64,000 nt of DNA from Mycobacteriales bacterium (GTDB lineage Bacteria; Actinomycetota; Actinomycetes; DATLTS01), in NCBI GenBank assembly GCA_035533475.1, contig DATLTS010000046.1, positions 2,229-66,228 of the forward strand, given 5' to 3'. The translations under genes and the position numbers were made by a program. Of the stretch, positions 16,628 to 58,546 are shown one piece after another. The stretch's first letter is position 1. Each line of letters opens with the position of its first letter. The notes beneath the pieces were generated by a model, which made no database searches, was not told the DNA's origin, and saw only the letters and a list, made by a program, of their open reading frames with translations.

Positions 16628-18177
16628 TCGACGCCGAGCAACAGCGGTCGGTCCGGCTGGCCGCCGGCGTAGATCACGGTTTCGACGCCCGGCCGGACCG
16701 CCTCGAGGTAGGCGGCGATCTCGCCGCCTACCTCCGGATCCGCCGCACCGCCGGTGATCAGCGTCACCAGCTCTCCGCCGCCGATGAGCATCCGGTCGAG
16801 CACCCCGGTGGCCACGTCTCGAACCGAGCTGCCGACGACGACGATCTCGCCCTCGACCAGCCCGAGCACGTCGCCCCTGGAGCACGGTCCGGCCGGGGTC
16901 GAGGACTCCCGGACCGCGCTGGTGACCTCCGCCCAGCGGGTTGCACCGGCGGCGGCCGTCATCGCGATGACGTCGTCGGCGAAGCGTCGGCGCGGGTCGT
17001 GGACCGCCAGCGCGGCGAGCCCCTGCACCGGGGACTGGGTCGGGATCACCTCGACCGCGCGCCCCTCTTCGCGCGCCCGGGCCGCAGCGGTGTCGGCGAA
17101 CGGCCGGACCGCGGGGTCGTTGGGGAGCAAGGCGACCTGGTCGGCTCCGGTAGCCCGGACGACCGCGAGCAGGTCGGCCGCCGACGGCGGGCGTACGCCG
17201 TCGATCACGGCGGCGCCCTCGGCGCGGAAGAGCCCGGCCAGCCCTTCGCCCGGCGCCACGGCGACAACCGCCGCGCCGACCGCGGGCTGCGCCGGCGCGT
17301 CAGCGAACCGGGTCACGACGATCCGGTGCGGCCGGCCGGCCTCGATCCCGGCCTCGACCGCCGCACCGACGTCGTTGACGTGCACATGGACCGTCCACAG
17401 GCCGTCCCCGCCGACCACGACTAGGGAGTCGCCGAGACGGCCGAGCCGCTCGCGCAGGCCGGCCACCGACGTCTCCGGCGCGTCGAGCAGGTACTGGACC
17501 TCGTACCCGAACGCGAGACTGCCCGACTCCCGGGCCCGGACGGACGGCGCGGGGCCGGCGTTGACCGGGGTGCCACCCGGTTGGCCGCCGCAGACCGCGG
17601 CCAGCGCGTCCAGCAGCACGACGAGGCCCCGGCCGCCGGCGTCGACGACACCGGCCAGGGCGGCGAGCTTCTGCGGGCTGCGGACCAGCTCCTCCGCGGC
17701 CCCCCGCGCGGCGGCGTCCGCCACTCCGGCGAGGTCGTCACCGGCGACCGCGGCGGCTGCCTCGGCGGCGGCCCGGGCCACCGACAGGACGGTACCTTCG
17801 ACCGGAGTGGCGACGGCGGCGTAGGCGAGATCCGCGGCGCGACCCAGCGCCACCTCCAGCTCGCGGCCACCGGCCGGACCGGCGCCGAACACCTCAGCGA
17901 GACCGCGGAGCAGCTCGCTGAGGATGACTCCGGAATTGCCGCGCGCACCGAGCAGAGCGCCGCGGGCCATCGCGGCGACCGTCCCCGGCAGATCCGAGCC
18001 GACGGGTGGTAGTGCCTCGACCACCGCGGCCATCGTGAGCGCGAGATTCGTTCCGGTGTCGCCGTCGGGGACCGGGTATACGTTCAGCCCGTCGATCTCC
18101 GCACGAGCCCGCTGGAGGGCTTCGAGTCCGGCGATGCACCACCGTCGGATGTCGTCGGCGTCGAGGCGGTCGAGCAC
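16624..18177 (-). CDS. DAK2 domain fusion protein (YloV family)
   Basis: N-terminal DAK2 domain (LNVYPVPDGDTGTNL) followed by a DegV-like C-terminal region, the conserved partner divergent from rpmB. Start set at the GTG of VLDRLDADDIRRW. The listed 834-aa ORF runs through rpmB and thiD and is not real upstream of ~18300. Confidence 0.7.
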   Translation of the reverse strand: MLDRLDADDIRRWCIAGLEALQRARAEIDGLNVYPVPDGDTGTNLALTMAAVVEALPPVGSDLPGTVAAMARGALLGARGNSGVILSELLRGLAEVFGAGPAGGRELEVALGRAADLAYAAVATPVEGTVLSVARAAAEAAAAVAGDDLAGVADAAARGAAEELVRSPQKLAALAGVVDAGGRGLVVLLDALAAVCGGQPGGTPVNAGPAPSVRARESGSLAFGYEVQYLLDAPETSVAGLRERLGRLGDSLVVVGGDGLWTVHVHVNDVGAAVEAGIEAGRPHRIVVTRFADAPAQPAVGAAVVAVAPGEGLAGLFRAEGAAVIDGVRPPSAADLLAVVRATGADQVALLPNDPAVRPFADTAAARAREEGRAVEVIPTQSPVQGLAALAVHDPRRRFADDVIAMTAAAGATRWAEVTSAVRESSTPAGPCSRGDVLGLVEGEIVVVGSSVRDVATGVLDRMLIGGGELVTLITGGAADPEVGGEIAAYLEAVRPGVETVIYAGGQPDRPLLLGVE

Positions 18178-18310
18178 AGCGGCCAGCGTAGCCGCGGGTA
18201 GCGACGGTTCGGTTGGTCCCGGCGACCCCGGTCGGCTAGTCTGGATCCGCTTGATCGCACCGCCGGTCGACGAATCCCGCGCCGGCTGACCACGTTCAGG
18301 AGAGATCCCG

Positions 18311-18499
18311 TTGGCTGCCGTCTGCGACGTCTGTGGCAAGGGGCCCGGTTTCGGCATGTCCGTGTCCCACTCCCACCGTCGCACCAGGCGCCGCTGGAAC
18401 CCGAACATCCAAACCGTGCACGCGGTCGTCGGCGGCACGCGGCGCCGGCTCAACACCTGCACGTCCTGCCTCAAGGCCGGCAAGGTCAGCCGGGGGTAG
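18311..18499 (+). CDS. rpmB: 50S ribosomal protein L28
   Basis: 62 aa, [34 protein letters not shown]..., a canonical L28 sequence. Confidence 0.9.
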
Positions 18500-19283
18500 T
18501 CCGCCACCGCCAGCCGTGGTCGACCGGGCCGATGCCCTGTCCCAGCGGGAACCCGGCGGCGATCGCGCCCGTCACGTAATCCTTCGCGGCTCGCGCCGCG
18601 GCCGGGACGTCCAGCCCGCGGGCGAGACCCGCCGCCAGTGCAGAGGCCAACGTGCAGCCGGTGCCGTGCGTGTGCCGGCGATCGAGCCGACCGGCCCGCA
18701 ACTCGAGGTGCGAACTGCCATCGGTGAGCAGGTCCACCGCGTCGCCCGACAAGTGGCCGCCGGTGACAAGGACCCAGCGCGGGCCCAGGGCGAGCACCGC
18801 GTCGGCCGCGCGGGACAGATCGGATTCCGCGTCGACGCGCAGGCCGGTGAGCATCTCGACCTCGTACAGGTTCGGCGTCACCACCGTCGCCAGCGGGAGA
18901 AGCTCGGTCCGGACGGTGGCCACGGCTTCCGGGGCGAGTAGCGGGTCGCCGTGCTTGGAGACGCCGACCGGGTCCACGACGAGCGGTGCCGTGATCCCGG
19001 ACAAGCCCTCGGCCACCGCCGACACCAGTTCCGGGGAGGCGAGCATCCCCGTTTTGACCGCGTCGACCCCGATGTCCCCGAGGACGCTCGCCAGCTGGGC
19101 GCGGACCGCCTCGACCGGTAGCTCCCATACCCCCTGGACACCGACCGAGTTCTGCGCGGTCACCGCGGTGATCACCGACATCGCGTGCACCCCGAAGGCG
19201 AGCATCGTCTTGAGGTCCGCCTGGATCCCAGCGCCACCCCCGGAATCCGAGCCGGCGATCGCGAGCACCCGCGGCGGGGTCAC
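18486..19283 (-). CDS. thiD: Hydroxymethylpyrimidine/phosphomethylpyrimidine kinase
   Basis: [23 protein letters not shown]..., VVDPV and [10 protein letters not shown] motifs are present. The GTG start overlaps the thiL stop. Confidence 0.85.
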
Positions 19284-20269
19284 CCGGGGTCCGCGAAGTG
19301 CTCGTGCCCGGGCGCCCCGGGTGGCTCGCGATCGATCCAGGCGAGTCCGCTGCCGGCGAGGACCCTGCCGACCTGCGTCACCGGCCACGGTCGGGCCAGC
19401 CCGGCGATCCGCACCGCAACGCGCCGCGCATCCTGATCCGACAGCGTCGCAGCGAACGCGTGGTCGTCCCCACCGCCGGCCAGCCAGCTGAGCGGATCGA
19501 TGCCCAGCCGTGCGGCGGCGGTGGCGAGCTCGGGGCCCATCGGCAGATCCGCGGCGGACAGTTCGATCCGGACGGCGGACCGCGTGGCCACGTGCCCGAG
19601 GTCGCGGGCCAGCCCGTCGCTCACATCGATCATCGAACTGGCGCCGGCCTCGGCCAGCTGGAGCGCCGCCGGGTAGGCCACAACCGGCTGCCGGTGCGCC
19701 TGGGCGAGCCGGGCCAGGTCCGGCTCGTGGCCGAGCCCGGCCCGCAGCACGGCGAGTCCGGCCGCCGCCCAGCCCAGTCGGCCGACGACGAGGACCACGT
19801 CCCCGGGCCGGGCTCCGGCGCGGGTCACCGGAGCCCGCCCGGCCAGGTCGCCGAGCGCGGTGACCGAGACGACCAGCCGGTCGCAGCGAACCACGTCGCC
19901 GCCGGCCACCGCCGCGCCACCGGCCATCGCCTCGTCCCGCAGCCCGTCGGCCAGCGCCTCGGCCCAGGCGACGGGGAGGGCGGCCGGCGCGGCCAGGCCG
20001 ACGAGTAGCGCGGTCGGAGCGGCTCCCATCGCGGCGACGTCGGCGAGGTTCTGTGCCGCCGCCTTGCGGCCGACGTCGTAACCGCTGGACAGGTCACGAT
20101 CGAAGTGCACGTCCTCGACCAGCAGGTCGGTGGTCGCGACCACCCGGCCGTCCGGCGCCCGAACGACCGCCGCGTCGTCACCTGGCCCGAGCACGATCCC
20201 CGGCCCGGACGGCAACCGGGCGATGATCCGCTCGATCAGGGCGAACTCGCCGATGTCGGCGAGCGTCAA
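19280..20269 (-). CDS. thiL: Thiamine-monophosphate kinase
   Basis: [15 protein letters not shown]..., DDAAVV and [10 protein letters not shown] are present with an AIR-synthase-related fold. Adjacent to and upstream of thiD. Confidence 0.85.
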
Positions 20270-46071: not shown

Positions 46072-46368
46072 ATGGCCATGATCAAAGTCACGTCCGAGGA
46101 TCTGCAGAGCGCATCCGGCACGCTGATGCAGGGCTCGAACGAGATCAGCGACCGCCTGACGAGCATGAAGAACCTCGTGACGAATCTCGTCGGCGGCGAC
46201 TGGCAGGGCGCCGCGTCGGGCAAGTTCAACGAACTGTTCGACCAGTGGAACGTCTCGGCGGCCGACCTGCAGCGGGCCCTAAGCGGGATCTCCCAACTGC
46301 TGGGCAACGCGGCCAGCGCCTACGCCGAGACGGAGAGCCAAATCGCGCAGTCGATGAACCAGGGCTGA
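46072..46368 (+). CDS. WXG100-family protein (ESAT-6/EsxA-like type VII secretion substrate)
   Basis: 98 aa, helical hairpin with a central W-x-G motif (LVGGDWQGAASGKFNELFDQW). N-terminus reads MAMIKVTSEDLQSASGTLMQGSNEI, typical of Esx proteins. Confidence 0.85.
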   Translation: MAMIKVTSEDLQSASGTLMQGSNEISDRLTSMKNLVTNLVGGDWQGAASGKFNELFDQWNVSAADLQRALSGISQLLGNAASAYAETESQIAQSMNQG

Positions 46369-46396: not shown

Positions 46397-46690
46397 GTGC
46401 GCTTCACCGTCGACCCGGAAGGGCTCGCCGCCTTGCACGACCAGCTGGTGGGCATCCAGGCCGACATGCAGAACATCGGCTCGTTCACCGGGAACCACGA
46501 TCCGCTGGACCTCGGCACGAATGATGACGTGTTCAACAGCCTGCAGAACTTCTACAACCAGTGGTCCAACGGGCTGTCCATCGTCACCGACGACATGACG
46601 GCGATCGTGGAGTCCCTCGCGACCGCGGCCGAGGGCTACGCGAAGACTGAGAACTCGATCGTGACAGCGGAAACCCCGAAGGGTTCATAG
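46397..46690 (+). CDS. Small helical partner protein (97 aa), WXG100-like size but lacking a WXG motif
   Basis: Good RBS (caagggagacc) upstream. Tightly linked between the WXG100 gene and the large WXG-domain protein. Predicted helical. Confidence 0.5.
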   Translation: MRFTVDPEGLAALHDQLVGIQADMQNIGSFTGNHDPLDLGTNDDVFNSLQNFYNQWSNGLSIVTDDMTAIVESLATAAEGYAKTENSIVTAETPKGS

Positions 46691-46694
46691 TTCG

Positions 46695-48146
46695 ATGCCC
46701 CGATGGCTGACCATTCTCGGTCAGAATTTCTCGCTGCCCGATCCCGACGTCGTCGAGGAGATCTCGCGCCAGTTCCGGCAGATCTCCGATAACCTGGAGC
46801 AGTCCGGCACGCGCCTCACCAAGCTCGGACCCACCCACGACTGGGGTCATTGGTCCGGCTCCGCCGCGGACGCGTTCGAGCAGAAGCTCGGGCCGCTGCC
46901 TGGTGACCTGAATCAGGCATCCGGCTCCTTCGGCAAGGTCGCTTGGGCGCTGTGGGAGTACGGCAACACGCTGCGCGACGTCATCACCTCCATCCAGACG
47001 CTCGCCGGGCATGTCGACGATGCCCAGTCCGAGCTCTCGTCCATCCAGGCCGCGGCCGCCGCTAATACCGACCCCACCCAGCAACGCGCCTGGCAGGACA
47101 AGATCACCCAGGCACAGCAGGCAGTTGCCTCGCACGCGACGCGGCTCCAGCAGTTGCGGGACGACCTGGATTCGGCAGCGCACCTCGTCGAGGGTCGGAT
47201 CCAGGACGCCATCAACATCGGCATCACCGGCTTCAGCTCGTTCGGCCGGCACTGGATCGGTCGAACTCAGAACGCGGTTGGTGAGGTTGCTGGCTTCGTC
47301 GTGCATCCGATCGAGGATCTACCCGGGGCCATCGCCGCCGAGTGGAATCACCCGTCATGGCAGAACCTGGCTCGGGTGGTGGGTGACGTCGCGGGCATCG
47401 TTGGACTAGTCGCTCTGGTCATTCCCGGGCTGGGCGAGGCGCTCATGGTTGTGTCGATGGGCCTCGATGCCGGCAAGCTCGCCCTGGACACGGGGGCGGT
47501 TGTCAGCGGGGAAACACACAGCTGGGGCAACGTCGCCCTCGACGGAATCTCGTTGGCCCTCGATGGCACGGCACTGCACGCGAGCGGGGCGGCCGAAGGT
47601 GAGACTGTGGCCAACGATGCGCTCGGCGCCGGCCAGTCGGATCTGAACCAGGCCGTCCGGGCCAACGTGAAGGCACAGAGCAGCCTGTCTCGGGCGATCG
47701 CGAGCGGACGTTCCGACGGACTGATCGCATCTCTGCGCGACGGCGCCGACGGGTCACTGGTGCATCTCGAGTCGATGCGCAACAAGGTGTCGATGCTCGA
47801 CGACGCCCGGACGGCGGCACAGACGGGTGCCGGCGCCTGGCGGACCGGGTTCCGCAGCTCGCTGAAATTCGACTTCGGCGGGGTCGGCGAAACGTATCAG
47901 GCGTGGCGGCACCTCCAGTGGAACACGCTCGCCCGCAGGTATCTCGGTGAATTCACCGGCGTGGACCTCTCCGGGGCTGTGCACAGCGCAGGTGTCGTTC
48001 GGATCGAAAACCTGAACTTCGCCGTGCATCAGCTCCGAGCTGCGAGCGGCGGCATGGTCGGGGGCGACGATAACTTCTCTGCTGTCCTTGGAGATCCGCT
48101 CGCGGGCCTCCGCGCTCTCGGAGTCAAGGTGGGGGCCGCATCATGA
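46695..48146 (+). CDS. Large WXG-like N-terminal domain protein (483 aa): candidate T7SS effector/polymorphic toxin with central hydrophobic hairpin
   Basis: N-terminal ~100 aa mimic a WXG100 fold with a W-x-G motif (THDWGHWSGSAADAFEQKL). A hydrophobic segment follows (VAGIVGLVALVIPGLGEALMVVSMGL). The C-terminal ~200-aa domain has no recognisable family. It begins 5 nt after the previous gene. Confidence 0.65.
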   Translation: MPRWLTILGQNFSLPDPDVVEEISRQFRQISDNLEQSGTRLTKLGPTHDWGHWSGSAADAFEQKLGPLPGDLNQASGSFGKVAWALWEYGNTLRDVITSIQTLAGHVDDAQSELSSIQAAAAANTDPTQQRAWQDKITQAQQAVASHATRLQQLRDDLDSAAHLVEGRIQDAINIGITGFSSFGRHWIGRTQNAVGEVAGFVVHPIEDLPGAIAAEWNHPSWQNLARVVGDVAGIVGLVALVIPGLGEALMVVSMGLDAGKLALDTGAVVSGETHSWGNVALDGISLALDGTALHASGAAEGETVANDALGAGQSDLNQAVRANVKAQSSLSRAIASGRSDGLIASLRDGADGSLVHLESMRNKVSMLDDARTAAQTGAGAWRTGFRSSLKFDFGGVGETYQAWRHLQWNTLARRYLGEFTGVDLSGAVHSAGVVRIENLNFAVHQLRAASGGMVGGDDNFSAVLGDPLAGLRALGVKVGAAS

Positions 48147-48787
48147 CCGCAACGACGCACATCGCACCGAGCGGGATCCGGCTGGCGACACCCGGGGACT
48201 GGTTCGAGGTGCCGACCTCCGAAGACCCCTCCGAGATCGCACGTCAGGTAGACGCACTGGTCGTCTCCCGGCCCGGGCTTGAAGGGCAGCGCGAGGTGCT
48301 CACCGGGCTGCTCGGCGTCCTCGGGGCCACGGCCGCAGCGAGCCGTGCCCTATGCGTGCGGGCAGTGCTCGTCGACGCTCCCGGTGGCCAGCTGCCGGCC
48401 TTTCTCATGGCCTCTATCGGGGAGGCGCCCGCGGGCGGTGTGGCGGCTATCCCCGGGGAAGACGCTTCTTGGCTGAGCCGGACCTTCGATTTGCCGATGG
48501 GCCCGACGGTCCGTCTCGAGGGGGTCGGCGAAACCCCCCGTGGTGCCGACGGCGGCGCAGTGGCCGTTTCACTCGTGCAGTACCACGCTGCCGTTCCGAG
48601 CACCGACCGGCTGCTCAGCCTGGTGTTTTTCACACCCGCGCTAGGGCTGATGGACACCGTGCTACGGGAGATCTTCCACGGCATCGCCTGCAGCGTCGAG
48701 TTCGAGGCCGACAACCCGGACCCCGAAGGTACGGCCGCGATGGCGCCGACCCATGGGCGTTCCGCCCCGGACGGCCTGACCTCCTGA
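48143..48787 (+). CDS. Hypothetical cytoplasmic protein (214 aa): candidate cognate immunity protein/chaperone
   Basis: Start overlaps the stop of the candidate effector (ATGA), and its stop overlaps the eccC start. No transmembrane segment and no known family. Confidence 0.5.
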   Translation: MTATTHIAPSGIRLATPGDWFEVPTSEDPSEIARQVDALVVSRPGLEGQREVLTGLLGVLGATAAASRALCVRAVLVDAPGGQLPAFLMASIGEAPAGGVAAIPGEDASWLSRTFDLPMGPTVRLEGVGETPRGADGGAVAVSLVQYHAAVPSTDRLLSLVFFTPALGLMDTVLREIFHGIACSVEFEADNPDPEGTAAMAPTHGRSAPDGLTS

Positions 48788-51700
48788 TGCGGCTCACGAT
48801 CACCCTGCGCTCCGCGGAGGCATCTCGTCATCTGGCAGTAGACACCCAGCCCGGAACCACCCTCGCCGACTTGCTCGAGGCCGCCGGTGCCAGCGGCGCT
48901 GTTGCGGTGAACGGCAGGGCGGCGCAGCCCAAGACCTTGCTTAGCCATATTCCGGTTCGTGACGGAACTGTGCTCGATGTTGGTCGCCGGCGCCCTGCCA
49001 CCCGCCGTGCGGACCCGGGCGCCCTGGCCCTACTCGTAGCAGGGGGGCCGGCGGCCGGGCACAGCCTGCCACTGGCCGAAGGAACGCATCCTCTCGGACG
49101 CACCGAACCCCTGCCGCTGGACGATCCGGACGTGTCCCGTCGCCATGCCCAGCTGGTGGTCACCCCCGACCATTCCCTCGCCTTGACCGACCTCGGCTCG
49201 CTGAATGGCACCCGCGTGCAGGAGCAACCGGTGGCCGGCACGCACCTGCTACGCCCCGGCGACCTGATCCGGATGGGGCAGTCCGCGCTCATAGTGGCGA
49301 TGGCACCGACGGCGGACGCGGCCATGACCGAAGGCGACGGGGGCCGGCTCCGGTACAGCCGTCCACCGAGGATCCGGGTGGGAGCGGCCGGGACCAAAGT
49401 GGACCTGCCGGCACCGCCCGGGGAAACCGACCGCGCGCCGATTCCGGTTCTGGCCATCCTGGCCCCAGTGGCTATCGGGGTGATGATGGCCCTGCTGCTG
49501 CACCAGATCACCTACCTAGCCTTCACCGCCCTGTCGCCGGTGATGGCCATCGGCAACGTGGTGTCCGATCGGCGCCGCGGCCGGGTCGGTCACCGCCAGA
49601 GAATGGTCGAGTTCGAGGCGCGTCGCTCCGCCGCCCTGGCTACCGCGCGCACCGCCCAGGAAACCGAGCTTGGTCGTTTGCGCTACGACCATCCCGATCC
49701 GGCCACCGCGCTGCTCATTGCGACCGGCCCGAGCAGCCGATTGTGGGAGCGGCAACGCCACGACGATGACTTCCTCACGCTGCGCATCGGCACCGCCGAG
49801 ATCCCCGCGTCGGTGGAGGTCCGGCAAACGGCGCCGCCCACCGAAACGGTGTCCCGGGTCACCCGGTTGCCAGAAGCGCCCGTGGTCGTGCCGGTGACGA
49901 GTTGCGGCGCGGTGGGTCTGACCGGCCCTGCGACGCTGGTCCGGGCGCTCGCTCGGGCGATGCTGCTGACGGCCGCAGTCCTGCATAGCCCACGTGAACT
50001 CACCATCACCTTGTTGACCCTCGACGAGGCTCGTGCCGACTGGGAGTGGCTGCGCTGGCTCCCGCACACACGCTTCCCTGACTCCGCTGCCGCCGGTTCC
50101 CGAATCGGCAACGACGAGGTCACAGTGACAAACAGGGTTAGTGAACTGGCCGCACTGATCGATGCGCGCCGTGCGGCTGTCCCGCCTGGTCAGAAGCCGA
50201 CGCTGCCGGCAACCGCCGATCTGGTGGTCGTAGACAACTCCTATCGGGTGCGACTCGAAACCGCGCTGGGCCCACTGCTGCACGCCGGGCCGGGTGTCGG
50301 TGTCTACTTCCTCTGCCTGGATGACACGGCCGCCCGGCTGCCCGAGGAATGCGCATCCGTCGTGGAGATCCGCGATGCGCCGGATGGTCCGCTGGCCCAA
50401 CTCCGCCGGAGCGGGCACCAACCGGTAGAGCAAATCGTGCCGGACCGGGTTACTCCCGACGTGTGCGAGGAGCTGGCTCGTTCCATCGCCCCCGTGATCG
50501 ATGCCGGTGGCGTCGAGACCCAGGCGGCGTTGCCCGGATCGGTGCGCTTCCTCGAGCTGGCCGGTCTCGAGCCGCCGACCTCGGAGGCGATCCTCGCGGG
50601 CTGGTCCGGCGGCGGTCGGACCACCCGAGCGCTGCTCGGCGTTGGCGCGGACGGTCCGGCAATTCTCGACCTGGCTCAGGGACCGCACGTCCTCATCGGC
50701 GGCACCACCGGGTCGGGCAAGAGCGAACTGTTGCAAACCCTGGTGGCCTCGCTCGCGGTCGCAAACCGCCCGGACGCGATGAACTTCGTGCTCGTCGACT
50801 ACAAGGGGGGGGCGGCGTTCCGCGGATGCGCCCAGCTGCCGCACACCGTCGGCATGCTCACCGACCTCGACGCCTTCCTCGTCGAGCGGGCGCTCACCTC
50901 GCTGCGTGCCGAACTTCAGCGTCGCAAGGCCCTCCTCGACGCCGCAGACAAGACCAACGTCTCCCGATACTGGGAAGCCCTGCCTTCGATGCCCGGCGCA
51001 GACCCCATGCCACGGCTCGTCGTAGTTGTCGACGAGTTCGCGGTGATGGCCGAGCAGTTGCCGGAACTGCTCAAGTCCCTCGTCGAGATCGCCGCGCAGG
51101 GTCGCTCGCTCGGCGTGCATCTCGTGCTGGCCACGCAGCGCCCGGCGGGCGTGGTCAACGCCGAGATGCGAGCGAACATCAACTTGCGCATCGCGTTGCG
51201 GGTGGCGTCCATTGACGACAGCATGGACGTGATCGGCGGTCCGGAGGCGGCCCGGATCCCGGCCGAAGGCACCGCCGGACGTTGCCTCGTGCGGACCGGC
51301 ACCAGCCGACCGGTCCCCCTGCAGGCCGCGCGAGTCGGGGGCCTGCGGCCCGGAGCCCACGCGGTTAGCGCCAGTGTCGGCGTCGTGCCTGTGGACTGGC
51401 TCGACGTCGGCCGGCCACCGGCCGGCGCGCCGCCCGACAGCTACGACCCGGCGGATCCCACTGATCTGTCCACCTTGGTGACCGCGGTCGCCGAAGCCGG
51501 GAGTCGGCTTGGCACAGCGCGGCCACGCTCACCCTGGCAGCCGCCGCTGCCGACCGCCCTCCCGCTGTCGTCGCTGGCGCCGTCCGACCAGGATCTCGCC
51601 ATCGTCTACGGCCTTGAGGACCTGCCGTCCCGGCAACAGCAGCGTCCCGCCGTACACGACCTACGCCGTGCCGGGCACCTGCTGGTAGCTGGTGCCCCCA

Positions 51701-53109
51701 AATCCGGCAGATCGACCCTGCTGCGCACATTGGCCGGATCGATCGCCACAAGCGTCACCGCCGAAGTGGCCCAGCTCTATGTCGTGGACTGCGGCGGGGG
51801 GGGCCTGTCGTCGCTGGCGGCGTTGCCGCACTGCGGTGCCGTCGTCACGCCGGCCGAGCCTGAGCGGGTTGACCGGCTGCTTACCAGGCTCACAGCTGAG
51901 CTGTCGCGCCGGATGCAGCTGCTTGCCACTGCGGGCTGCAGCGATATCGGTGAGTACGTTGCCGGGGGTGGTGAGCCCCTTCCGTACCTCGCGGTGATCG
52001 TCGATCGTCACGACGCATTCAGCACCGCGCTCGAGCACATCGACGGTGGCCGCCTGGTTACCGAGCTCCAGCGACTGGTCCGGGACGGGCTGGCCGCGGG
52101 TGTCCGGGTCATCGTGACCGGTGACCGGAGCCTCCTGACGGGGAAGCTCGGTGGCCTCGTCGAGGACAAGCTGGTGCTTCGGCTCGCCGACCGGATGGAC
52201 TACACCGTGGCTGGCCTATCGGCCAAGACATTGCCCGACATCGTTCCAACCGGACGCGCGTTCCGGCTGCCGGCCGGCGACCAGATTCAAATCGCCACCC
52301 TCTCCGCCGACCCGGAGGGTGCGGCGCAGAATCGCGCGATCCGGGACATCGCCGCGACTGCTGCGGCACCACGGCACCGACCGATCCGGGTCGATTCGCT
52401 GCCTCCGGCAATCAGCTATGCCGAGGCACGTGATCTGCCCGTCTCCGGCAGCGGCGCTCTTGTCGGCGTCGGCGGCGACGAGTTGGGACAGGTCCGCGCC
52501 GACGGCCCCGGGTTCCTCGTCCTCGGGACGTCAGGTAGCGGCCGCAGCAGCGCCCTGGCCGTTATCGCCCGTTCCGTCGTCGACGACGGTCGCCCGGTGG
52601 TTCTGGTCACCCCACGCCGGTCCCGATTGTCGGTACTGATCCCCGCCGGACCCGGCGTACTCGCAGTTCACGACGGTGGCGAGGAGGAACTTGCGGCCGC
52701 GGTAGCCACTTCAACCGACACGGTCCTCATCATCGACGACGTGGAAATGCTCACCGAGACCGCCCTTGGAGAACAGATCACCGCCATCCTCCGCCAGGCA
52801 CGCGATACCCGGCACGTCGTGTACGCCGCCGCGTCGGGAGACGAGGCGGGAAACATCTACCGCGGCCCGCTCGCCGAACTGCGCAAGTGCAAGCAAGGGC
52901 TGGTACTTGCACCAACCAACCCCACCCAGGGGGATGTGATCGGCACCCGGCTGCCTCGGTCGGTGCTGTCCGCCGGCATCCCGCAACGAGGCGCCCTGGT
53001 GCTCAACGGGACGGTCACCGCGGTGCATGTACCAACCATCGAACCGCCGGCACCCGCGCGTGCTCCCGCCAAGCGCCGACGGGCGCCTGCCCGGACCGAG
53101 AGCGGTTGA
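48787..53109 (+). CDS. eccC: EccC/EssC-type type VII secretion FtsK/SpoIIIE ATPase (three P-loop domains) with N-terminal ubiquitin-like and FHA domains
   Basis: 1440 aa. A beta-grasp-like N-terminus (MRLTITLRSAEASRHLAVDTQPGTTLADLLEAAG) is followed by an FHA domain (HPLGRTEPLPLDDPDVSRRHAQLVV...SLNGTRV). Two transmembrane helices follow. Three Walker A motifs are present (GGTTGSGKSELLQTL, AGAPKSGRSTLLRTL, LGTSGSGRSSALAV) with Walker B-like DEF/DD boxes. The listed ORF start at 48352 overlaps the previous gene; ATG 48787 was chosen. Confidence 0.9.
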   Translation: MRLTITLRSAEASRHLAVDTQPGTTLADLLEAAGASGAVAVNGRAAQPKTLLSHIPVRDGTVLDVGRRRPATRRADPGALALLVAGGPAAGHSLPLAEGTHPLGRTEPLPLDDPDVSRRHAQLVVTPDHSLALTDLGSLNGTRVQEQPVAGTHLLRPGDLIRMGQSALIVAMAPTADAAMTEGDGGRLRYSRPPRIRVGAAGTKVDLPAPPGETDRAPIPVLAILAPVAIGVMMALLLHQITYLAFTALSPVMAIGNVVSDRRRGRVGHRQRMVEFEARRSAALATARTAQETELGRLRYDHPDPATALLIATGPSSRLWERQRHDDDFLTLRIGTAEIPASVEVRQTAPPTETVSRVTRLPEAPVVVPVTSCGAVGLTGPATLVRALARAMLLTAAVLHSPRELTITLLTLDEARADWEWLRWLPHTRFPDSAAAGSRIGNDEVTVTNRVSELAALIDARRAAVPPGQKPTLPATADLVVVDNSYRVRLETALGPLLHAGPGVGVYFLCLDDTAARLPEECASVVEIRDAPDGPLAQLRRSGHQPVEQIVPDRVTPDVCEELARSIAPVIDAGGVETQAALPGSVRFLELAGLEPPTSEAILAGWSGGGRTTRALLGVGADGPAILDLAQGPHVLIGGTTGSGKSELLQTLVASLAVANRPDAMNFVLVDYKGGAAFRGCAQLPHTVGMLTDLDAFLVERALTSLRAELQRRKALLDAADKTNVSRYWEALPSMPGADPMPRLVVVVDEFAVMAEQLPELLKSLVEIAAQGRSLGVHLVLATQRPAGVVNAEMRANINLRIALRVASIDDSMDVIGGPEAARIPAEGTAGRCLVRTGTSRPVPLQAARVGGLRPGAHAVSASVGVVPVDWLDVGRPPAGAPPDSYDPADPTDLSTLVTAVAEAGSRLGTARPRSPWQPPLPTALPLSSLAPSDQDLAIVYGLEDLPSRQQQRPAVHDLRRAGHLLVAGAPKSGRSTLLRTLAGSIATSVTAEVAQLYVVDCGGGGLSSLAALPHCGAVVTPAEPERVDRLLTRLTAELSRRMQLLATAGCSDIGEYVAGGGEPLPYLAVIVDRHDAFSTALEHIDGGRLVTELQRLVRDGLAAGVRVIVTGDRSLLTGKLGGLVEDKLVLRLADRMDYTVAGLSAKTLPDIVPTGRAFRLPAGDQIQIATLSADPEGAAQNRAIRDIAATAAAPRHRPIRVDSLPPAISYAEARDLPVSGSGALVGVGGDELGQVRADGPGFLVLGTSGSGRSSALAVIARSVVDDGRPVVLVTPRRSRLSVLIPAGPGVLAVHDGGEEELAAAVATSTDTVLIIDDVEMLTETALGEQITAILRQARDTRHVVYAAASGDEAGNIYRGPLAELRKCKQGLVLAPTNPTQGDVIGTRLPRSVLSAGIPQRGALVLNGTVTAVHVPTIEPPAPARAPAKRRRAPARTESG

Positions 53110-53601
53110 TCAGTGCCGCCGCAGAGCCCCCCGCAGGCGCCCCCATCGGCCATGCATTACCGGTTGGCCTGCTGGCGCTGCGCCAGCGGGCCGATCCGCC
53201 CGCATCCGGGTTCGCGTCGGATCCGCCACGGGTTCGGACTGCTGTATTTCCGGCCGGGCGGCTACGCTCGCCGGCCGGAAATGCACCCATACGTCGCCAA
53301 AGCGCAGCGAGCACGCGTCGATCAGGGCGGTTCCGTCCGGCCCAACGGCGGTCTCCCCCAGCCACGTGCCGTTCGCGGACCCGAGGTCACGCAACACGAC
53401 AGCGGAAGCGGTCACTTCGAGTTCGGCGTGACGACGGGAGACGGACCGGTCTGGGTCCAGCTCGGTGAGATCGACATCCGGTGGCACCGGCATCCGCTCG
53501 TCGTAGCGTCCGACAACTGTCATCCCGGGCGGCAGGAACCATACCGATGGTCCGGCCGCGAGGGACGATTCGGTCGCCCGTTGGGTCACGGCAGCGAGCA
53601 T
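53110..53601 (-). CDS. Stand-alone FHA-domain protein
   Basis: GMTVVGRYDERMPVPPDVDLTELDPDRSVSRRHAELEVTASAVVLRDLGSANGTWL matches the FHA consensus (G-R, S-R-x-H, N-G-T). It is convergent with the eccC end. The start could be further upstream (up to 53844) through an Arg-rich stretch. Confidence 0.7.
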   Translation of the reverse strand: MLAAVTQRATESSLAAGPSVWFLPPGMTVVGRYDERMPVPPDVDLTELDPDRSVSRRHAELEVTASAVVLRDLGSANGTWLGETAVGPDGTALIDACSLRFGDVWVHFRPASVAARPEIQQSEPVADPTRTRMRADRPAGAAPAGQPVMHGRWGRLRGALRRH

Positions 53602-53630
53602 ACGGTGATCGAACCTCAGGGGGCGCAATC

Positions 53631-54437
53631 GTGAGCGACGACCCGACCGCAACCCGCGGCCGGTCCAAGCCACCTGCATCAGAGCCGCCGGCGGAAGGGC
53701 AGCCCAGCAACGACCCGACCGCAACCCGCGGCCGGTCCAAGCCGGCGCCGGCACCGCCTGTATCCGAGCCGCCGGCGGAGCGGCAGGCCGCCGCAGATCC
53801 GACCGCAACCCGCGGTCGGCTCGCTCCACAGTCCTCGCCGCCACCCGACGGCGCGCCCCAGCCTGACCCGCAAGGGACCGTGCTCCGGCGTCGCGCGCCG
53901 GGGTCCTTCCCGGCCGCGGAAGTCAAGGTCGCTCCAGCACTGGCCTCCGCCCCGATGGCACCGGTCGTACTGCCCGATCGTCGGATCGAGCCACCCGTCT
54001 ACCGGCCTCCCGGCAGCCGGCGCAGGCTGGTCGCTGCCGTCGGTGGTTTGCTTCTCGCGGGCGCCGGAGTGGCCCTCGGATACGCATTGCATCCGCAGCC
54101 AACGCCCCCGGCCCGGGCCACGGTCGCACCGCCGACCCTGTCGGGGGTGGTCGCTTCCGGTCCGGCCGGAGCTCTGCACTGCCCATCAGCGCTCCTGCAC
54201 GTGGTCGGAACTATCACGGTCACCGCCGCGACCACGGTTCGCTACCAGTGGCGCCTTCCGGATGGCACCTTCACGGCCGTGCAAACCCTCACCGCGGCAG
54301 GCCCCGGACCGGTCACCGCCACACTGAGCTACACCCTGTCCGGTCACGGACAGCAAACCGGCGTGGCCACTCTGCACGTGCTGACACCCGCGGACGTTTA
54401 CTCCAACCCAGTGGCCGTCGCCTACCGGTGCCCATGA
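53631..54437 (+). CDS. Proline-rich single-pass membrane protein with 3x DPTATRGR(S/L)KP tandem repeats and a C-terminal extracytoplasmic beta-rich domain
   Basis: GTG start with an aggggg RBS. Three ~60-bp direct repeats (53640-53830) encode DPTATRGRSKP...SEPPAE. A transmembrane helix follows (LVAAVGGLLLAGAGVALGYAL), then a Cys-containing C-terminal domain. The opposite-strand reading of the same repeats is also open, so strand assignment is not certain. Confidence 0.55.
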   Translation: MSDDPTATRGRSKPPASEPPAEGQPSNDPTATRGRSKPAPAPPVSEPPAERQAAADPTATRGRLAPQSSPPPDGAPQPDPQGTVLRRRAPGSFPAAEVKVAPALASAPMAPVVLPDRRIEPPVYRPPGSRRRLVAAVGGLLLAGAGVALGYALHPQPTPPARATVAPPTLSGVVASGPAGALHCPSALLHVVGTITVTAATTVRYQWRLPDGTFTAVQTLTAAGPGPVTATLSYTLSGHGQQTGVATLHVLTPADVYSNPVAVAYRCP

Positions 54438-54449
54438 AGCCAGTTGCCG

Positions 54450-57063
54450 CTAGGAACCTGTGAAATGGAAGGTGACCGGCATGTAGTTCGCCGCGTGAGC
54501 GTTAGCGTTTGGACTGCTCTGGCATGACGCCTCGATGGTGAGGTCACCGGCGGGTATCGAGGGCGTTGGTTGTCCCTGCTGGGATTGGAATGAGCCGACC
54601 TGCGCCGTGCCCTGCCAGGAACCGTCCGGCTGTAGCCGGATCGGCCCACCCTGCCTGAGGTCCGCTTGGGGGACGAGGGTTGCGATGTCGTAAATGACGA
54701 TTTGGCTTCCTGCTGGGCAGGCTGTTTGGGAGGTCATGGTGATGACCGTTTTGGCCCCACCACTGCTCGGCGAAATGGTGAACGTCATCGCCGGGCCGCC
54801 GTAGCAGAGCCACGACACCGCGTCGTTGGGATCGTTGAGCCTGGCCGTCACGTTCGAGTGGTAGTAGAACTGCCACTGACAGGCAGCGTTCATGTCGACC
54901 GGCTGGGTGCCTTTGGCTCCTGTACAGGTCCAGTTCCCGGTCCCGTCGCCCGGACCGAGCAGAGGCTTCGTCGGGGCGGCCATGCTGAATCCGAGCGACG
55001 CGCAGTAGGAGTCGAGTTGCGCGCCGCCGAGCAAGCCGGCCTGCGACGGCACGATAGACGCGGGCGGCAACTCGGCGCCGGCCGGCAGCCTGCGGAGGTT
55101 TTGCGTGCTGGTCAGGACGTGCCCGTGGTAGGTGAACGAATCGAATATGGTCAACCGCGTTGCCGTGCACGTTACCTGAGTCGGGACGATACCCGTCTGC
55201 AGCGGCACGCCCTGCGACAGTGTGTGATCGTACCCGGCGTAGAGCAGGCTCACCGAGTGGCTGTAGTCAGCGTTGATCGTCAGCAGGGTGTGCTCACCAC
55301 GGGTCGCCCAGCGCCAGGTCGACGTCCCATATCCGGTGTCGATGAAGGGGGCGCCGTTGAGAACCCCCGTGGCCGGCGGTCCGCCGGGCGGGGACACCCC
55401 GATCGCCGTGCCGTCGGCGTTGTAACGCGTGTCCCCGTCGAGCGGACTGGGCGGCAGGTTTACCAGGACGGGCTGCTGGCTCCAGACGTCGTCGTACGGA
55501 CCGCCCAGCACCGCCCAGGTGCCGACTATGCATGACGCCAGCGGTGGGGGGCTGGGTGAGGCTGCAGCGGCGCCGACGAGAGTGACGGCCGTCAGTACCG
55601 CAACCACTCCAGCGACGACCGGCGGCCGGCTGGCGATGCGCACCGGTATCGCGCTCACAACGACACTAACCAGAGCGGATGTGCGCCGCGGTGGCGCCGC
55701 CCGGCCCGGTTCCGCGGGAGCTTTCGGGCCGTCCGCCGCGTGACTCGGGGGCTCGCTCCTCGGGGCGCTCGGTCCGGGGGGAGCCGCCGGGGAAGTGCCG
55801 CCCGCCACGGTGCCGCCCGCCACGGTGCCGCTCGCCACGGTGGCCCCCACCGTGCTGGAACCGGCGACCGGAGCGAGCGCAGCCCCCGCTGCCGAGACGG
55901 TCCCGGCGCCGACAATCGCGGCCGTTGCGCCGCCGGCGGCCAGAGCGGCGACAGCGCCAACCATCGCGGCCGGCTGCCAATTCGGCCCGTAGGCCTGACG
56001 AGCTGCCGCGGTGAGGTTCTCCCGGAACTGCGCGGCCGAACCGGGCCGGGCGGCAGGATCTTTGGCCAGGGCGGACATCGTGAGCAGCGCCAAGGCCTCG
56101 GGGATCTGTGGCCGCACCGACCGGGGGTCCGGCACCGGATCTCCGAGGTGGGCGTCCATCACGGCGGCTGGGGTCGCGCCCACGTACGGGCGCTGCCCGG
56201 TCAGCACCTCGAAGAGCACCGCCCCGCAGGAGTAGATATCCGTTCTGGCGTCCAGGGGTTCGCCGCGCACCTGTTCCGGACTCATGTAGGCGGGCGAGCC
56301 CACCGATGCCTCGCTGCCCTGGGCGAAGGCTCCGACGTCGCGGGCGAGGCCGAAGTCGACGAGCCGGGACACCCCGGCGCGATCCACGAGGATGTTGTCG
56401 GGCTTGATGTCGCGGTGCACCATCCCCCGGGCATGCACGTGCTCGAGGCCGGCGAGCGCCCCGTCGAAGACTGCGGCCGCCTGTTCGCCACCAAGTGGGC
56501 CAGAACGGCGAAGCATCGCGCGCAGGCTGGCCCCGTCCACGTAGTCGACCACGATCGCCGCGATCACGTCGTCGTCGAGGATTTCGCGCACCCGGACGCA
56601 GTTCGGATGATCGAGGGCACGCATCAGCGTGGCCTCGTCGCGGAAGCGGGCGCGAAATTCCTCGTCGTCCATCCACTCGGGCGCGAGCACTTTGATCGCA
56701 ACCGCATGGCCGTCGTCGTCATGCGCCCGATACACGGTGCCGGACGCGCCGGACCCCACGATTCCGTCAACCGAGTAGGTGCCGATCCGCACCCGGGCTG
56801 GCGAGCCCAGCCACCTGGCCACGAGCAGTGGCGCCGCCCCGAGTAGGGCACCGGCGACGGCTGCGACGATCCACCACACCGGGTTCATCGAACCGACCCG
56901 CGACCCCCACCACGCAGCGTCCCCAGCGCCAGCAGCGAGGCCCAGCCCCGCTAACCGTGCCAGGCTCGAGGAACGGTGGCGGAAAGCCAGCATCAAGGAG
57001 ATGCCGGTGGCGGCGACGGTGACGGCCAGACCGAAGTAACCGGCCCAGGTGGGAACATGCATG
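54450..57063 (-). CDS. Membrane Ser/Thr protein kinase with N-terminal transmembrane helices, second TM and large Cys-rich extracytoplasmic domain
   Basis: Hanks kinase motifs are present (GSGASGTVYRA, AIKVL, HRDIKPDNILV, DFGLA, SPAYMSPE). N-terminal hydrophobic helices precede the kinase domain. An Ala/Gly-rich linker, a transmembrane helix (VVAGVVAVLTAVTLVGAAAA) and a ~380-aa C-terminal region with eight Cys follow. Start set at ATG 57063 (MHVPTWAGYFGL). Confidence 0.9.
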
Positions 57064-57148
57064 ACGGCCTCCTCGCGAACACCCAAGCATCTCCGCGCAC
57101 CGATCGCGGGTGTTTTCGGGTAACCAGCGGGAGAAGCGCCCTGGTCGC

Positions 57149-58546
57149 CTAGCTGAAGGCGGCGGCGAGTTCTTCGAGGCATCCGGGCAGCGCGTCGGCG
57201 ATCGCCCAGGTGTCCGCCACCAGATCGGGGCAGGCCATGATGCCGACGTCGAGCCGGTCGAGGTTGGACAGCACCGTGATGTTCATCCCGGTGCCCGGCA
57301 GCAGCGGGCCGAGCGGATAGATGGCGTCGATCCGAGCCCCAGCCAGGTACAGCGCTACCGGCGGTCCCATGACGTTGGACACGATGAGGTTCTGAAGGGC
57401 GGGCTGCAGCGCCGAGAGACCGAGGCTGCGCATCAGCCAGGTCACGACGGAAACCGCCGCGGGTGGCGTCACGTCGGCGAGCGACGCGAGCGTCGACGTC
57501 CCTGCCGCCCCCGTAATCTCCTTGGCCATCGCCGAGTTTCGATGCACGAGCTGTAGGAGCTCCGCCGGCTCGCTCTCCCGCATCGGTAGAGCTACGAGGA
57601 GGGCGGCGAGCCGGTTGGTGCCGCTCGTCTCGCCCTCACCCGCATTGAGCGGGCAGCTGACGACGAGCGGTCGGCCCGGCACCGCATCCCGCGCCCTGAG
57701 GTAGCGCCGGAGTGCCAGCGCGATCGTGGCGAGCACCACATCGTTGAGCTTCACGCCGGCCGCGTCCTTGACCTGCTTCGCCTGCTCGAGCGGCAGCGCG
57801 GAGAAGGCCGCGATCCGGGCCCGGGTGGGCGGCCCGCTGATCGGGGTCCGCGGCGAGGCGATCGGCATCGTGGCCGGGCCGGAACCGGCAATCATGCGAC
57901 CCACGGCGGGCAGGGCCGAGATCAGGCCCCGTCCGCTCGACAGCACGGCCCTCCCGGCGGCCAGCGGCCAGCGGAGTTGGTTCGCCAGGGTCCGGCCGGT
58001 CAGCGCGAATGCGCCGGGCCGTTCGTCCTGGGGGCCGGGCAGCGGCGGCGCGGGAAGCGGCGGAGGGTTCGGCTCGAGATCTAGCAGGGCGGCAATGAAC
58101 TCGGCCCCCGCCGCCCCGTAGAGGGTGCAGTGGTGCACCTTGGCGACCAGCCCCACCCGGCCCGCTGCCAGTCCGTGAACGACGTGCAACTCCCAAAGCG
58201 GCCGGTCCCGGTCCAACCGTCGGCTCGCGATCCTTCCGACCAGATCGCCGAGGGCGCGCGCATCGCCGGGGGGATCGACCTCGTCGTCGAACAGGTGGAG
58301 CGAGAGGTCGACGTCGGCCACCTCCAGCCAGTACGGCTTGTCCAGGGAGAGCGGCACGGTGACGAGTTGCCGTCCGAATGGCGGCATCAGGTGGATTCGG
58401 TCGGCCACGACCTGGCGCAACCGGGCGCGGGAGTACCCGTCTCCGGGTGAAGGATCGAGCAGCAGGACACCGAGAACGTGCATCGGGAGCTCGGCGGTCT
58501 CCAGGGCGAGGAAGGCGGCGTCCATCCCGGTGAGCTGCTCGGCCAT
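57149..58546 (-). CDS. Wax ester synthase/diacylglycerol acyltransferase (WS/DGAT)
   Basis: MAEQLTGMDAAFLALET N-terminus and the active-site HHCTLYGAAG (HHxxxDG-type) motif. Confidence 0.85.
   Translation of the reverse strand: MAEQLTGMDAAFLALETAELPMHVLGVLLLDPSPGDGYSRARLRQVVADRIHLMPPFGRQLVTVPLSLDKPYWLEVADVDLSLHLFDDEVDPPGDARALGDLVGRIASRRLDRDRPLWELHVVHGLAAGRVGLVAKVHHCTLYGAAGAEFIAALLDLEPNPPPLPAPPLPGPQDERPGAFALTGRTLANQLRWPLAAGRAVLSSGRGLISALPAVGRMIAGSGPATMPIASPRTPISGPPTRARIAAFSALPLEQAKQVKDAAGVKLNDVVLATIALALRRYLRARDAVPGRPLVVSCPLNAGEGETSGTNRLAALLVALPMRESEPAELLQLVHRNSAMAKEITGAAGTSTLASLADVTPPAAVSVVTWLMRSLGLSALQPALQNLIVSNVMGPPVALYLAGARIDAIYPLGPLLPGTGMNITVLSNLDRLDVGIMACPDLVADTWAIADALPGCLEELAAAFS

Follow-up and report, generated by a model that had tools for sequence, protein, structure and literature searches.

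Type VII secretion systems (T7SSs) are central to mycobacterial virulence and to interbacterial competition in Gram-positive bacteria. The ATPase described here is encoded on a stretch of 64,000 nucleotides from a Mycobacteriales bacterium (GenBank assembly GCA_035533475.1, contig DATLTS010000046.1, positions 2,229 to 66,228 of the forward strand). This stretch, hereafter the window, has a G+C content of about 70%. Its + strand carries a genuine open reading frame (ORF) at 48787-53109, whose translation of 1440 amino acids (aa) is a fused type VII secretion ATPase. An N-terminal ubiquitin-like (Ubl) domain is followed by an FHA domain, a transmembrane (TM) region, a DUF and three P-loop domains, an assignment confirmed by the translation, Pfam, NCBIfam, matches to the Protein Data Bank (PDB) and homologues. 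The gene is the last of an operon that encodes, in this order, a WXG100 protein, a weakly WXG100-like protein, an LXG-like protein with a T7SS_signal domain, a 214-aa protein and the ATPase.

The reading frame is formally open over 48352-53109, and the start at 48787 is taken as the true one for four reasons. The frame with high G+C content at third codon positions (GC3) switches from that of the upstream gene at about 48700-48800, and the ATG at 48787 overlaps the stop codon of this gene (TGATG, in the context cctgATG). Furthermore, homologues share an MRL or MTRL motif at the same N-terminal starting point, and an identical protein of 1440 aa has been deposited from a Mycobacteriales metagenome-assembled genome (MAG) as HVA61107.1. 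A preliminary description of this DNA, made from the sequence alone, had chosen the same start and discounted the upstream extension; the frame switch, the stop/start overlap and the deposited protein bear this choice out. The origin from a MAG and the frame that stays open up to 48352 could suggest that the fusion is an artefact, either of a mis-assembled contig or of a mis-called start that merged a separate Ubl gene with the ATPase. This explanation is hardly credible and effectively refuted by the same layout in 74 of 80 independent genomes, including complete isolates. In addition, no stop codon lies between the Ubl and FHA domains, the linker between them is modelled with a predicted local distance difference test score (pLDDT) of ~80, and the homologue search returned the identical protein on three contigs, while GC3 and the overlapping codons speak for the start at 48787.

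All domains of the ATPase lie on the + strand. The two TM helices (residues ~218-262; 49438-49572) were located by a hydrophobicity scan and in the sequence, and the region aligns with that of the EccCa and EssC models from residue ~190-217. The first ATPase domain, D1 (50587-51336), contains the Walker A motif GTTGSGKS (residues 639-646) and the Walker B motif LVVVVDE (744-750); the best stretch of the Pfam FtsK_SpoIIIE match (E 7.7e-58) spans residues 619-787. D2 (51484-52266) was placed by the NCBIfam EccCb alignment and the sequence, and carries the Walker A variant GAPKSGRS at 51691-51714 (residues ~969-976). D3 (52384-53046) was placed by Pfam nSTAND and P-loop matches at residues 1237-1357 and by its motifs, a Walker A variant GTSGSGRS at 52525-52548 (~1247-1254) and a Walker-B-like VLIIDD. 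Among the three P-loops, which begin at residues 639, 969 and 1247, only that of D1 belongs to a domain with canonical Walker motifs, and in D2 and D3 the catalytic lysine is replaced by arginine. As the resulting G-R-S is at least 90% conserved in alignment A2, the sequence suggests that D2 and D3 are nucleotide-binding or regulatory rather than hydrolytic domains. The FHA domain, the two TM helices and the three FtsK-like ATPase domains had all been named in the preliminary description, and Pfam, the hydrophobicity scan and the P-loop motifs agree with it.

The protein scores below the cutoff of each NCBIfam model of its superfamily. EssC (TIGR03928) reaches 522 bits over residues 190-1158 (cutoff 778.4), EccCa (TIGR03924) 417.6 bits over residues 217-851 (cutoff 509), and EccCb (TIGR03925) 315.4 bits over residues 901-1281 (cutoff 346.6). 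By sequence, the solved structures nearest to the protein are Thermomonospora curvata EccC with 279 bits, B. subtilis YukB with 211 bits and EccC5 with 192 bits. The identification as a T7SS ATPase is based on these scores and structures, on a score of only 76 bits for the NCBIfam FtsK model, and on the WXG100 and T7SS_signal genes in the operon. The features of the EccC/EssC superfamily, namely two TM helices, a DUF, three tandem FtsK-like P-loop domains and linkage to WXG100 genes, are all present. In public databases, members of the family are annotated as 'FtsK/SpoIIIE domain-containing protein', 'cell division protein FtsK' or 'DNA segregation ATPase'. Together with weak matches to TraB, TraD and HerA models, these names would fit an FtsK/TraB-like translocase that acts on DNA in conjugation or chromosome segregation and is equipped with regulatory domains, instead of a secretion ATPase. 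The gap between the FtsK score and the 315-522 bits of the EccC and EssC models makes this very improbable, as do the three tandem P-loops combined with a DUF and two TM helices, a hallmark of EccC/EssC, and the WXG100 and LXG-like genes of the operon, which recur across related loci.

The Ubl domain comprises residues 1-66 (48787-48984) and was identified by structure prediction, Foldseek and profile matches. An alignment of 54 homologous N-termini (A1) was used both for a Ubl profile and for AlphaFold2, which returned a model with a pLDDT of 90 and the topology b-b-a-b-b-b. The top Foldseek matches of this model in the PDB are all ubiquitin, SUMO, NEDD8 or TINCR-Ubl (probability 1.0, TM-score 0.5-0.66), in line with the beta-grasp or ubiquitin-like fold predicted earlier for this N-terminus. 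When compared with the PDB, the 54-sequence profile matches ubiquitin-fold chains with E-values down to 1e-6 and the Ubl of EccD1 (4kv2) with E 0.024. The Pfam family YukD (PF08817) matches 16 of the 54 sequences at E <= 0.1, with a best value of 9.6e-5, whereas the Ubl of the window protein alone yields only sub-threshold matches to ThiS (E 0.013), SLBB and Ub-Mut7C and none to YukD. Profile comparison with hhalign aligned the Ubl with the N-terminal Ubl of a Streptomyces EccD (probability 90%, E 1.6e-6), but gave no meaningful alignment with B. mycoides YukD (probability below 1%). Free YukD was therefore rejected as the nearest relative, and by profile comparison the domain resembles the actinobacterial EccD Ubl rather than firmicute YukD. 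In a model of residues 1-215, exactly one Ubl is followed by a fairly ordered linker and one FHA domain, with an overall pLDDT of 86.6 and a predicted template modelling score (pTM) of 0.62.

An exhaustive HMMER search of 1.84 billion representatives with the Ubl profile gave 1402 matches at E <= 1e-3. The best of them are polyubiquitin-type repeat proteins, and many others are single N-terminal matches in proteins of ~1400-1500 aa or in N-terminal fragments of such proteins. Matches P0191-P0207 contain 5-18 tandem ubiquitin repeats, with Pfam ubiquitin E-values down to 1e-228. Since the highest scores go to ubiquitin-repeat proteins, the Ubl would, by sequence profile, be nearer to ubiquitin proper than to YukD.

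A single FHA domain occupies residues ~80-175 (49024-49311) and was assigned from Pfam, motif residues, the model and the closest structures. The Pfam FHA match (PF00498) covers residues 109-164 with E 4.2e-12 and 46.8 bits against a cutoff of 20.7, and the domain is modelled at a pLDDT of 92-98. The phosphothreonine (pThr)-binding residues of the GR / SxxH / NG pattern, G104-R105, S117, H120 and N140-G141, are all intact and at least 90% conserved in the close subfamily, so the FHA is predicted to be of the canonical phosphothreonine-reading type. In a structure search, OdhI, GarA and FhaA were closest (34-36% identity, TM-score up to 0.89), and no EssC or YukB FHA was among the top 50 matches. 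Likewise, a sequence search against the PDB matched the FHA region to GarA, OdhI and Rv0020c, and the alignment of YukB to the window protein starts only at residue 188. GarA, OdhI and FhaA (Rv0020c) are known pThr readers in actinobacterial Ser/Thr-kinase signalling. They share the pThr-contacting residues of the window FHA but, unlike this domain, which is built into a secretion ATPase, they are small soluble proteins that regulate metabolism or the synthesis of the cell wall.

Between the FHA domain and the first TM helix, the linker contains the motif RYSRPPR (residues 189-196; 49351-49374), with no variation at R192, P194 and R195 in alignment A2. The corresponding linker of YukB serves both to bind the pseudokinase YukC and to form oligomers (PMC12637312).

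The ATPase belongs to a large family. Homologues had to be sought with the full-length query, as the first 347 aa by themselves gave mainly generic FHA proteins. The full-length search yielded 355 clusters at E <= 1e-10, with lengths of ~1400-1570 aa and identities of 37-55%. The sources include Streptomyces, Actinomadura, Nonomuraea, Micromonospora, Kineosporia and Pseudofrankia, many MAGs, and also Actinoplanes and Microbacterium. From 80 species-level genomes with a relative, 80 related loci were collected, each consisting of the ATPase gene with flanks of +/-10 kb. With the ATPase ORF of each locus anchored on its D1 match, the Ubl hidden Markov model (HMM) is positive at the ATPase N-terminus in 74 loci, complete isolate genomes included, and the other six have a frameshifted or truncated ORF or, on visual inspection, a Ubl-like sequence. 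The HMM is also positive in Bifidobacterium colobi, Winkia neuii/Actinomyces and other Bifidobacteriaceae (E 1e-6 to 5e-12). A WXG100 gene lies near the ATPase in 50 of the 80 loci, and LXG-like (T7SS_signal) homologues occur in 35. The literature searched contained no description of a Ubl domain fused to a T7SS ATPase, and this widespread, unnamed lineage is apparently undescribed.

The position of the family was assessed in a neighbour-joining tree of 1196 shared columns with 200 bootstraps and few references. The references came from plasmids, on which EssC genes have EsaA, EssA, YukD and EssB neighbours and EccC genes have EccA, EccB, EccD and PE/PPE neighbours. Extra EccCa sequences were added, as were Coriobacteriales "EssC" proteins, which served as proxies for TsdC, the ATPase of T7SSd, in place of the accessions of PMC11217815. 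The Ubl-FHA family, including its Bifidobacterium and Winkia members, forms one clade with 100% bootstrap support. The EccC clade, also at 100%, joins it at 76%, and EssC together with the T7SSd-like ATPases of Coriobacteriales forms the opposite clade at 100%. Judged from these sequences, the Ubl-FHA ATPases stand on the side of EccC as a clade of their own, distinct from EssC and the T7SSd-like ATPases. Identities of the window protein, taken from a trimmed alignment made earlier, amount to 54-55% with its nearest relatives, 23-29% with EccC and 23% with EssC.

The preliminary description had regarded the protein as a hybrid between the firmicute T7SSb and actinobacterial T7SSa lineages and had named the phylogeny of the ATPase domains as a check. 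The protein indeed falls outside ordinary EccC, yet it does not lie between the two lineages but in its own clade next to EccC. Taken literally, a hybrid origin would mean that the N-terminal module of a firmicute EssC, plus YukD, recombined with an actinobacterial EccC body. EssC is the best single NCBIfam model, but the EccCa and EccCb scores together exceed it. An N-terminal FHA is otherwise a feature of the EssC side, but that of the window protein is single rather than double, GarA/OdhI-like, and without affinity in sequence or structure to the EssC/YukB domains. The Ubl is functionally equivalent to YukD, yet matches the Ubl of EccD. Furthermore, genes of T7SSb were not found in the window or the 80 loci, and neither were T7SSa scaffold genes, while the family is old and widespread within Actinomycetota. 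Recombination of this kind is thus distinctly unlikely, a firmicute-type source for the FHA and Ubl domains is not upheld by the structure and profile searches, and the hybrid character persists in form only. Because the architecture is family-wide and common in Actinomycetota, the protein is not an isolated chimera. Its likeness to EssC plus YukD is better described as analogous or convergent.

Several features connect the window ATPase with both well-known branches of T7SSs. With EccC of T7SSa (4NH0; EccC5 7B9F/7NP7) it shares the two TM helices, the DUF, the three FtsK-like domains with D1 as the canonical ATPase, and a WXG100 pair, here as putative substrates. EccC references begin directly with the TM region and contain neither a Ubl nor an FHA domain, as had been noted for the FHA in the preliminary description, whereas the window ATPase carries both at its N-terminus. 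In T7SSa, the Ubl is part of the 11-12-TM protein EccD, in the window family of the ATPase; Iyer et al. (2006) reported that in actinobacteria the YukD domain "always" occurs in fusion with a 12-TM protein (PMC1779556). T7SSa also possesses the core membrane components EccB, EccD, EccE and MycP, and no EccB, EccD or EccE was found in the loci of the family. More precisely, tblastn with annotated references, including those of B. mycoides and Enterococcus, revealed no EccB, EccD, EssA, EssB or YukD in the 64-kb window or the 80 loci, a result bounded by the sensitivity of tblastn and the extent of the flanks. The window protein also falls short of the EccCa and EccCb cutoffs and is, on these grounds, not a member of T7SSa.

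Like EssC/YukB of T7SSb (9QKS), the window ATPase has a cytoplasmic N-terminal FHA region ahead of its TM helices. Both systems include a membrane partner of the kinase or pseudokinase fold, whose kinase domain is N-terminal and cytoplasmic and is followed by a TM segment and an extracellular domain, and both have LXG-type substrates, in the window a candidate, with small WXG-like partners. In the cryogenic electron microscopy (cryo-EM) structure of the B. subtilis T7SSb published in 2025, YukD binds the DUF and FHA regions of YukB, is required to recruit the pseudokinase YukC, and is a key assembly factor; the Ubl of EccD binds the DUF of EccC (PMC12637312). The earlier suggestion that free YukD/EsaB is the T7SSb counterpart of the N-terminal domain is valid as a functional analogy. 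YukD/EsaB is a free protein contacting FHA and DUF, whereas the window Ubl is covalently fused and, by hhalign, not YukD-like in sequence. EssC contains two tandem, degenerate FHA domains (PMC11217815), in contrast to the one pThr-intact FHA that follows the beta-grasp domain here, and the partner EssB/YukC is a pseudokinase, whereas the window kinase has intact catalytic motifs. As the EssC cutoff is missed as well and no Pfam or NCBIfam match to EssA, EssB, EsaA or free EsaB/YukD was obtained among the neighbouring genes of the window, the locus does not belong to T7SSb either.

The operon starts with an EsxA-like WXG100 gene (46072-46368, + strand; Pfam WXG100 E 4.7e-22; NCBIfam TIGR03930 with 71 bits, above the cutoff). 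It is followed at 46397-46690 (+) by a gene for a second, divergent WXG100-like small helical protein, whose WXG100 match is weak and below the cutoff (E 0.0067) and which is conserved in the related loci L002 and L047. This product is probably a partner or Lap-like protein. The third gene (46695-48146, +) encodes an LXG-like candidate substrate of 483 aa with an N-terminal T7SS_signal/WXG-like helical domain (PF21725 with 30 bits against a cutoff of 27; WXG100 with 29 bits) and a hydrophobic, Gly-rich middle. This central stretch (...VAGIVGLVALVIPGLGEALMVVSMGLDAG...) recalls membrane-active T7SS toxins. The 214-aa cytoplasmic protein is encoded at 48143-48787 (+), overlapping both flanking genes, which points to translational coupling. 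Searches of Pfam and NCBIfam with it gave no match, it occurs at the same position only in the subfamily of the window protein (6-7 loci), and it could be an immunity protein or a chaperone. The operon is flanked by genes for an acyl-CoA dehydrogenase and other functions of lipid metabolism.

On the other side of the ATPase gene, a small stand-alone protein with a canonical C-terminal FHA domain (GR...SRRH...NGT; Pfam E 3.2e-11) is encoded on the opposite strand at 53110-53601 (-), abutting the 3' end of the ATPase gene; its start is at 53601 or 53679. In two loci of Bifidobacteriaceae, a similar gene with a C-terminal FHA immediately follows that of the ATPase (14422-15261 in L057 and 14400-15071 in L060). 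The next ORF (53547-54437, +; start uncertain, ATG at 53547 or GTG at 53631) would encode a single-TM protein in which a disordered N-terminal region with three near-identical DPTATRGR(S/L)KP repeats precedes a beta-rich C-terminal domain of ~90 aa. Its coding status rests only on ORF length and a weak GC3 signal, and neither a Pfam match nor a homologue in the 80 related loci was found. The protein might serve as a phospho-acceptor for the FHA domains nearby and for the adjacent kinase.

This kinase is a membrane Ser/Thr kinase encoded at 54450-57182 on the - strand, with possible starts at 57182, 57062, 56993 and 56888 (Pfam Pkinase E 4.2e-50). The motifs VAIK, HRDIKPDN, DFG and SPE are intact, and the enzyme is predicted to be active. 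In the longest ORF, hydrophobic segments lie both before and after the kinase domain. The extracytoplasmic C-terminal domain of ~370 aa contains cysteines and matched no family. Among the 80 loci, a kinase is found within the flanks of 29, at fixed positions that are specific to the clade. In the closest relatives (L001, L002, L003, L007 and L047), and also in L015, its gene immediately follows that of the ATPase on the same strand.

An FHA-containing ATPase beside a membrane kinase is also known from T7SSd. Garrett, Higginson & Palmer (2024) defined T7SSc-j, so that the classification now comprises the ten subtypes T7SSa-j, and proposed phospho-regulation through kinase and FHA domains for T7SSc, T7SSd and T7SSe (PMC11217815). 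T7SSd consists of a WXG100 protein, the ATPase TsdC, the kinase TsdD, the single-TM protein TsdH and TsdI, a Sec-secreted protein of ~1650 aa with immunoglobulin-like (Ig-like) domains; the FHA of its ATPase is pThr-competent, and it is "surprisingly" without a ubiquitin-like protein (PMC11217815). The window ATPase might accordingly be a member of T7SSd, with its fused Ubl as the component reported missing there. Both systems are actinobacterial, with T7SSd described from Olsenella and Bifidobacterium, and both have the conserved GR/SxxH/NG residues, a membrane Ser/Thr kinase, a small single-TM protein, few core genes and no free Ubl gene. Of the single-TM proteins, TsdH has a short disordered cytoplasmic tail and the putative product of 53547-54437 a disordered N-terminal region.

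A further point for such a membership comes from the Bifidobacteriaceae, where the Ubl-bearing ATPases of L057 and L060 lie in the published T7SSd gene order of kinase, small TM protein, Ig-like protein of 1600-1850 aa and ATPase. However, the type TsdC (1563 aa) begins MSVDAYVTMTIDAQRLNF... and aligns with the FHA1 region of EssC instead of a Ubl. The Coriobacteriales 'EssC' proteins P0174 and P0175 have no Ubl match and cluster with EssC at 100%, away from the Ubl-FHA family, with which the ATPases of L057 and L060 are grouped. The GR motif is 100% conserved in TsdC, whereas the Bifidobacteriaceae members have no detectable FHA, and WP_214375749 from B. colobi is not found in the searched part of the supplementary data of PMC11217815. 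The window itself has no ORF for a TsdI-like giant near the ATPase, such giants being confined to L057 and L060, and the Ubl-FHA family, which extends to Streptomyces, Actinoplanes, Micromonospora, Actinomadura, Microbacterium and others, is far more widespread than T7SSd. Membership in T7SSd is thus unlikely. The fused Ubl was rejected as the "missing" ubiquitin-like protein of that system, because the N-terminus of TsdC is EssC FHA1-like and the TsdC-like proteins of Coriobacteriales are Ubl-negative and cluster with EssC.

A preprint from 2026 links kinase/FHA signalling to Esx secretion in Actinomycetales, without giving the domain architecture of EccC (PMC13622651). A link of the present family to the threat-sensing Esr/Esx system of Schaalia described there was considered but not established, as the region downstream of the ATPase in L057 and L060 revealed neither MoxR nor vWA genes.

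The protein is probably the membrane motor ATPase of a type VII-like (WXG100/Esx) secretion system that belongs to a distinct and widespread actinobacterial lineage, with a Ubl acting in cis and gating through FHA and kinase. The Ubl of EccD in T7SSa and free YukD/EsaB in T7SSb have established roles that they exert in trans; by analogy, the N-terminal Ubl would take over this task in cis. It may dock on the DUF/D1 region of its own ATPase and on the adjacent FHA, and thereby hold the cytoplasmic base of the oligomeric ATPase in a conformation competent for assembly. The FHA, given the GarA-type domains it resembles, its intact residues and the neighbouring kinase, is proposed to read phosphothreonine written by this kinase, through which an extracytoplasmic signal would gate assembly or activity. 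Possible carriers of the mark are the kinase, the Thr-repeat membrane protein or another partner, and the stand-alone FHA protein may be a competitor or an adaptor. D1 would hydrolyse ATP and drive the export of the WXG100 pair and the LXG-like protein, while D2 and D3, with arginine in their Walker A motifs, would serve as substrate-binding or regulatory modules as in EccC.

Several observations weigh against this model. The tree is a neighbour-joining tree with few references, and its deep node uniting the family with EccC reaches only 76%. The kinase gene of the window is convergent to the operon, lies 1.3 kb from the ATPase gene and is not co-transcribed with it, and the flanks of 51 of the 80 loci contain no kinase. 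In the wider family, the pThr residues of the FHA are kept in only about 60-65% of the members; the domain is degenerate in Bifidobacteriaceae and not detectable by Pfam in members of the L057/L060 type. Phospho-gating is therefore not universal in the family, as many members have degenerate FHA residues or lack a nearby kinase. In addition, nothing in the window was recognised as a dedicated channel or as a component that spans the cell wall, and with a pTM of only 0.62 even the relative orientation of the Ubl and FHA domains in the model is uncertain.

A more far-reaching reading is possible, although it is held only tentatively. The family may represent an unclassified, phylum-wide actinobacterial subtype outside T7SSa-j that has dispensed with the EccD scaffold, carries the Ubl of this scaffold on its motor ATPase and switches secretion on through pThr signalling by a cognate kinase. 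If so, the natural fusion would be a 'Rosetta-stone' proof of the Ubl-ATPase contact as the conserved core of all T7SS assembly. The fused Ubl would supply independent evolutionary evidence for this contact as the conserved assembly core. The family offers a minimal system for structural and mechanistic work, and its intact FHA and neighbouring, predicted active kinase make phospho-regulation of a T7SS directly testable. Moreover, it points to secretion systems in antibiotic-producing actinomycetes whose ATPases are annotated only as "FtsK/SpoIIIE domain-containing protein".

The gene neighbourhoods differ between the clades of the family, and several conserved neighbours in clades other than that of the window gave no match in Pfam or NCBIfam. 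In the Bifidobacteriaceae loci L057 (3808-9357) and L060 (4437-9284), the ATPase adjoins a kinase, a small TM protein and an Ig-like-domain protein of 1615-1849 aa. A MycP-like S8 protease was detected by tblastn in only 14 loci, of the Actinoplanes/Micromonospora type, and not in the window. In L026, L028-L034, L038, L041, L046, L052, L076 and L080, a mycosin-like S8 protease is encoded downstream of the ATPase together with a secreted SLT transglycosylase fused to Ricin-type lectin domains, for example at 17295-18917 of L080. This transglycosylase could be a dedicated cell-wall hydrolase analogous to EssH. In L006, L019 and L025, a second ORF of 1513 aa without a Ubl match lies directly downstream of the Ubl-FHA ATPase gene (about 14840-19390, + strand) and may encode a paralogous ATPase or another giant protein.

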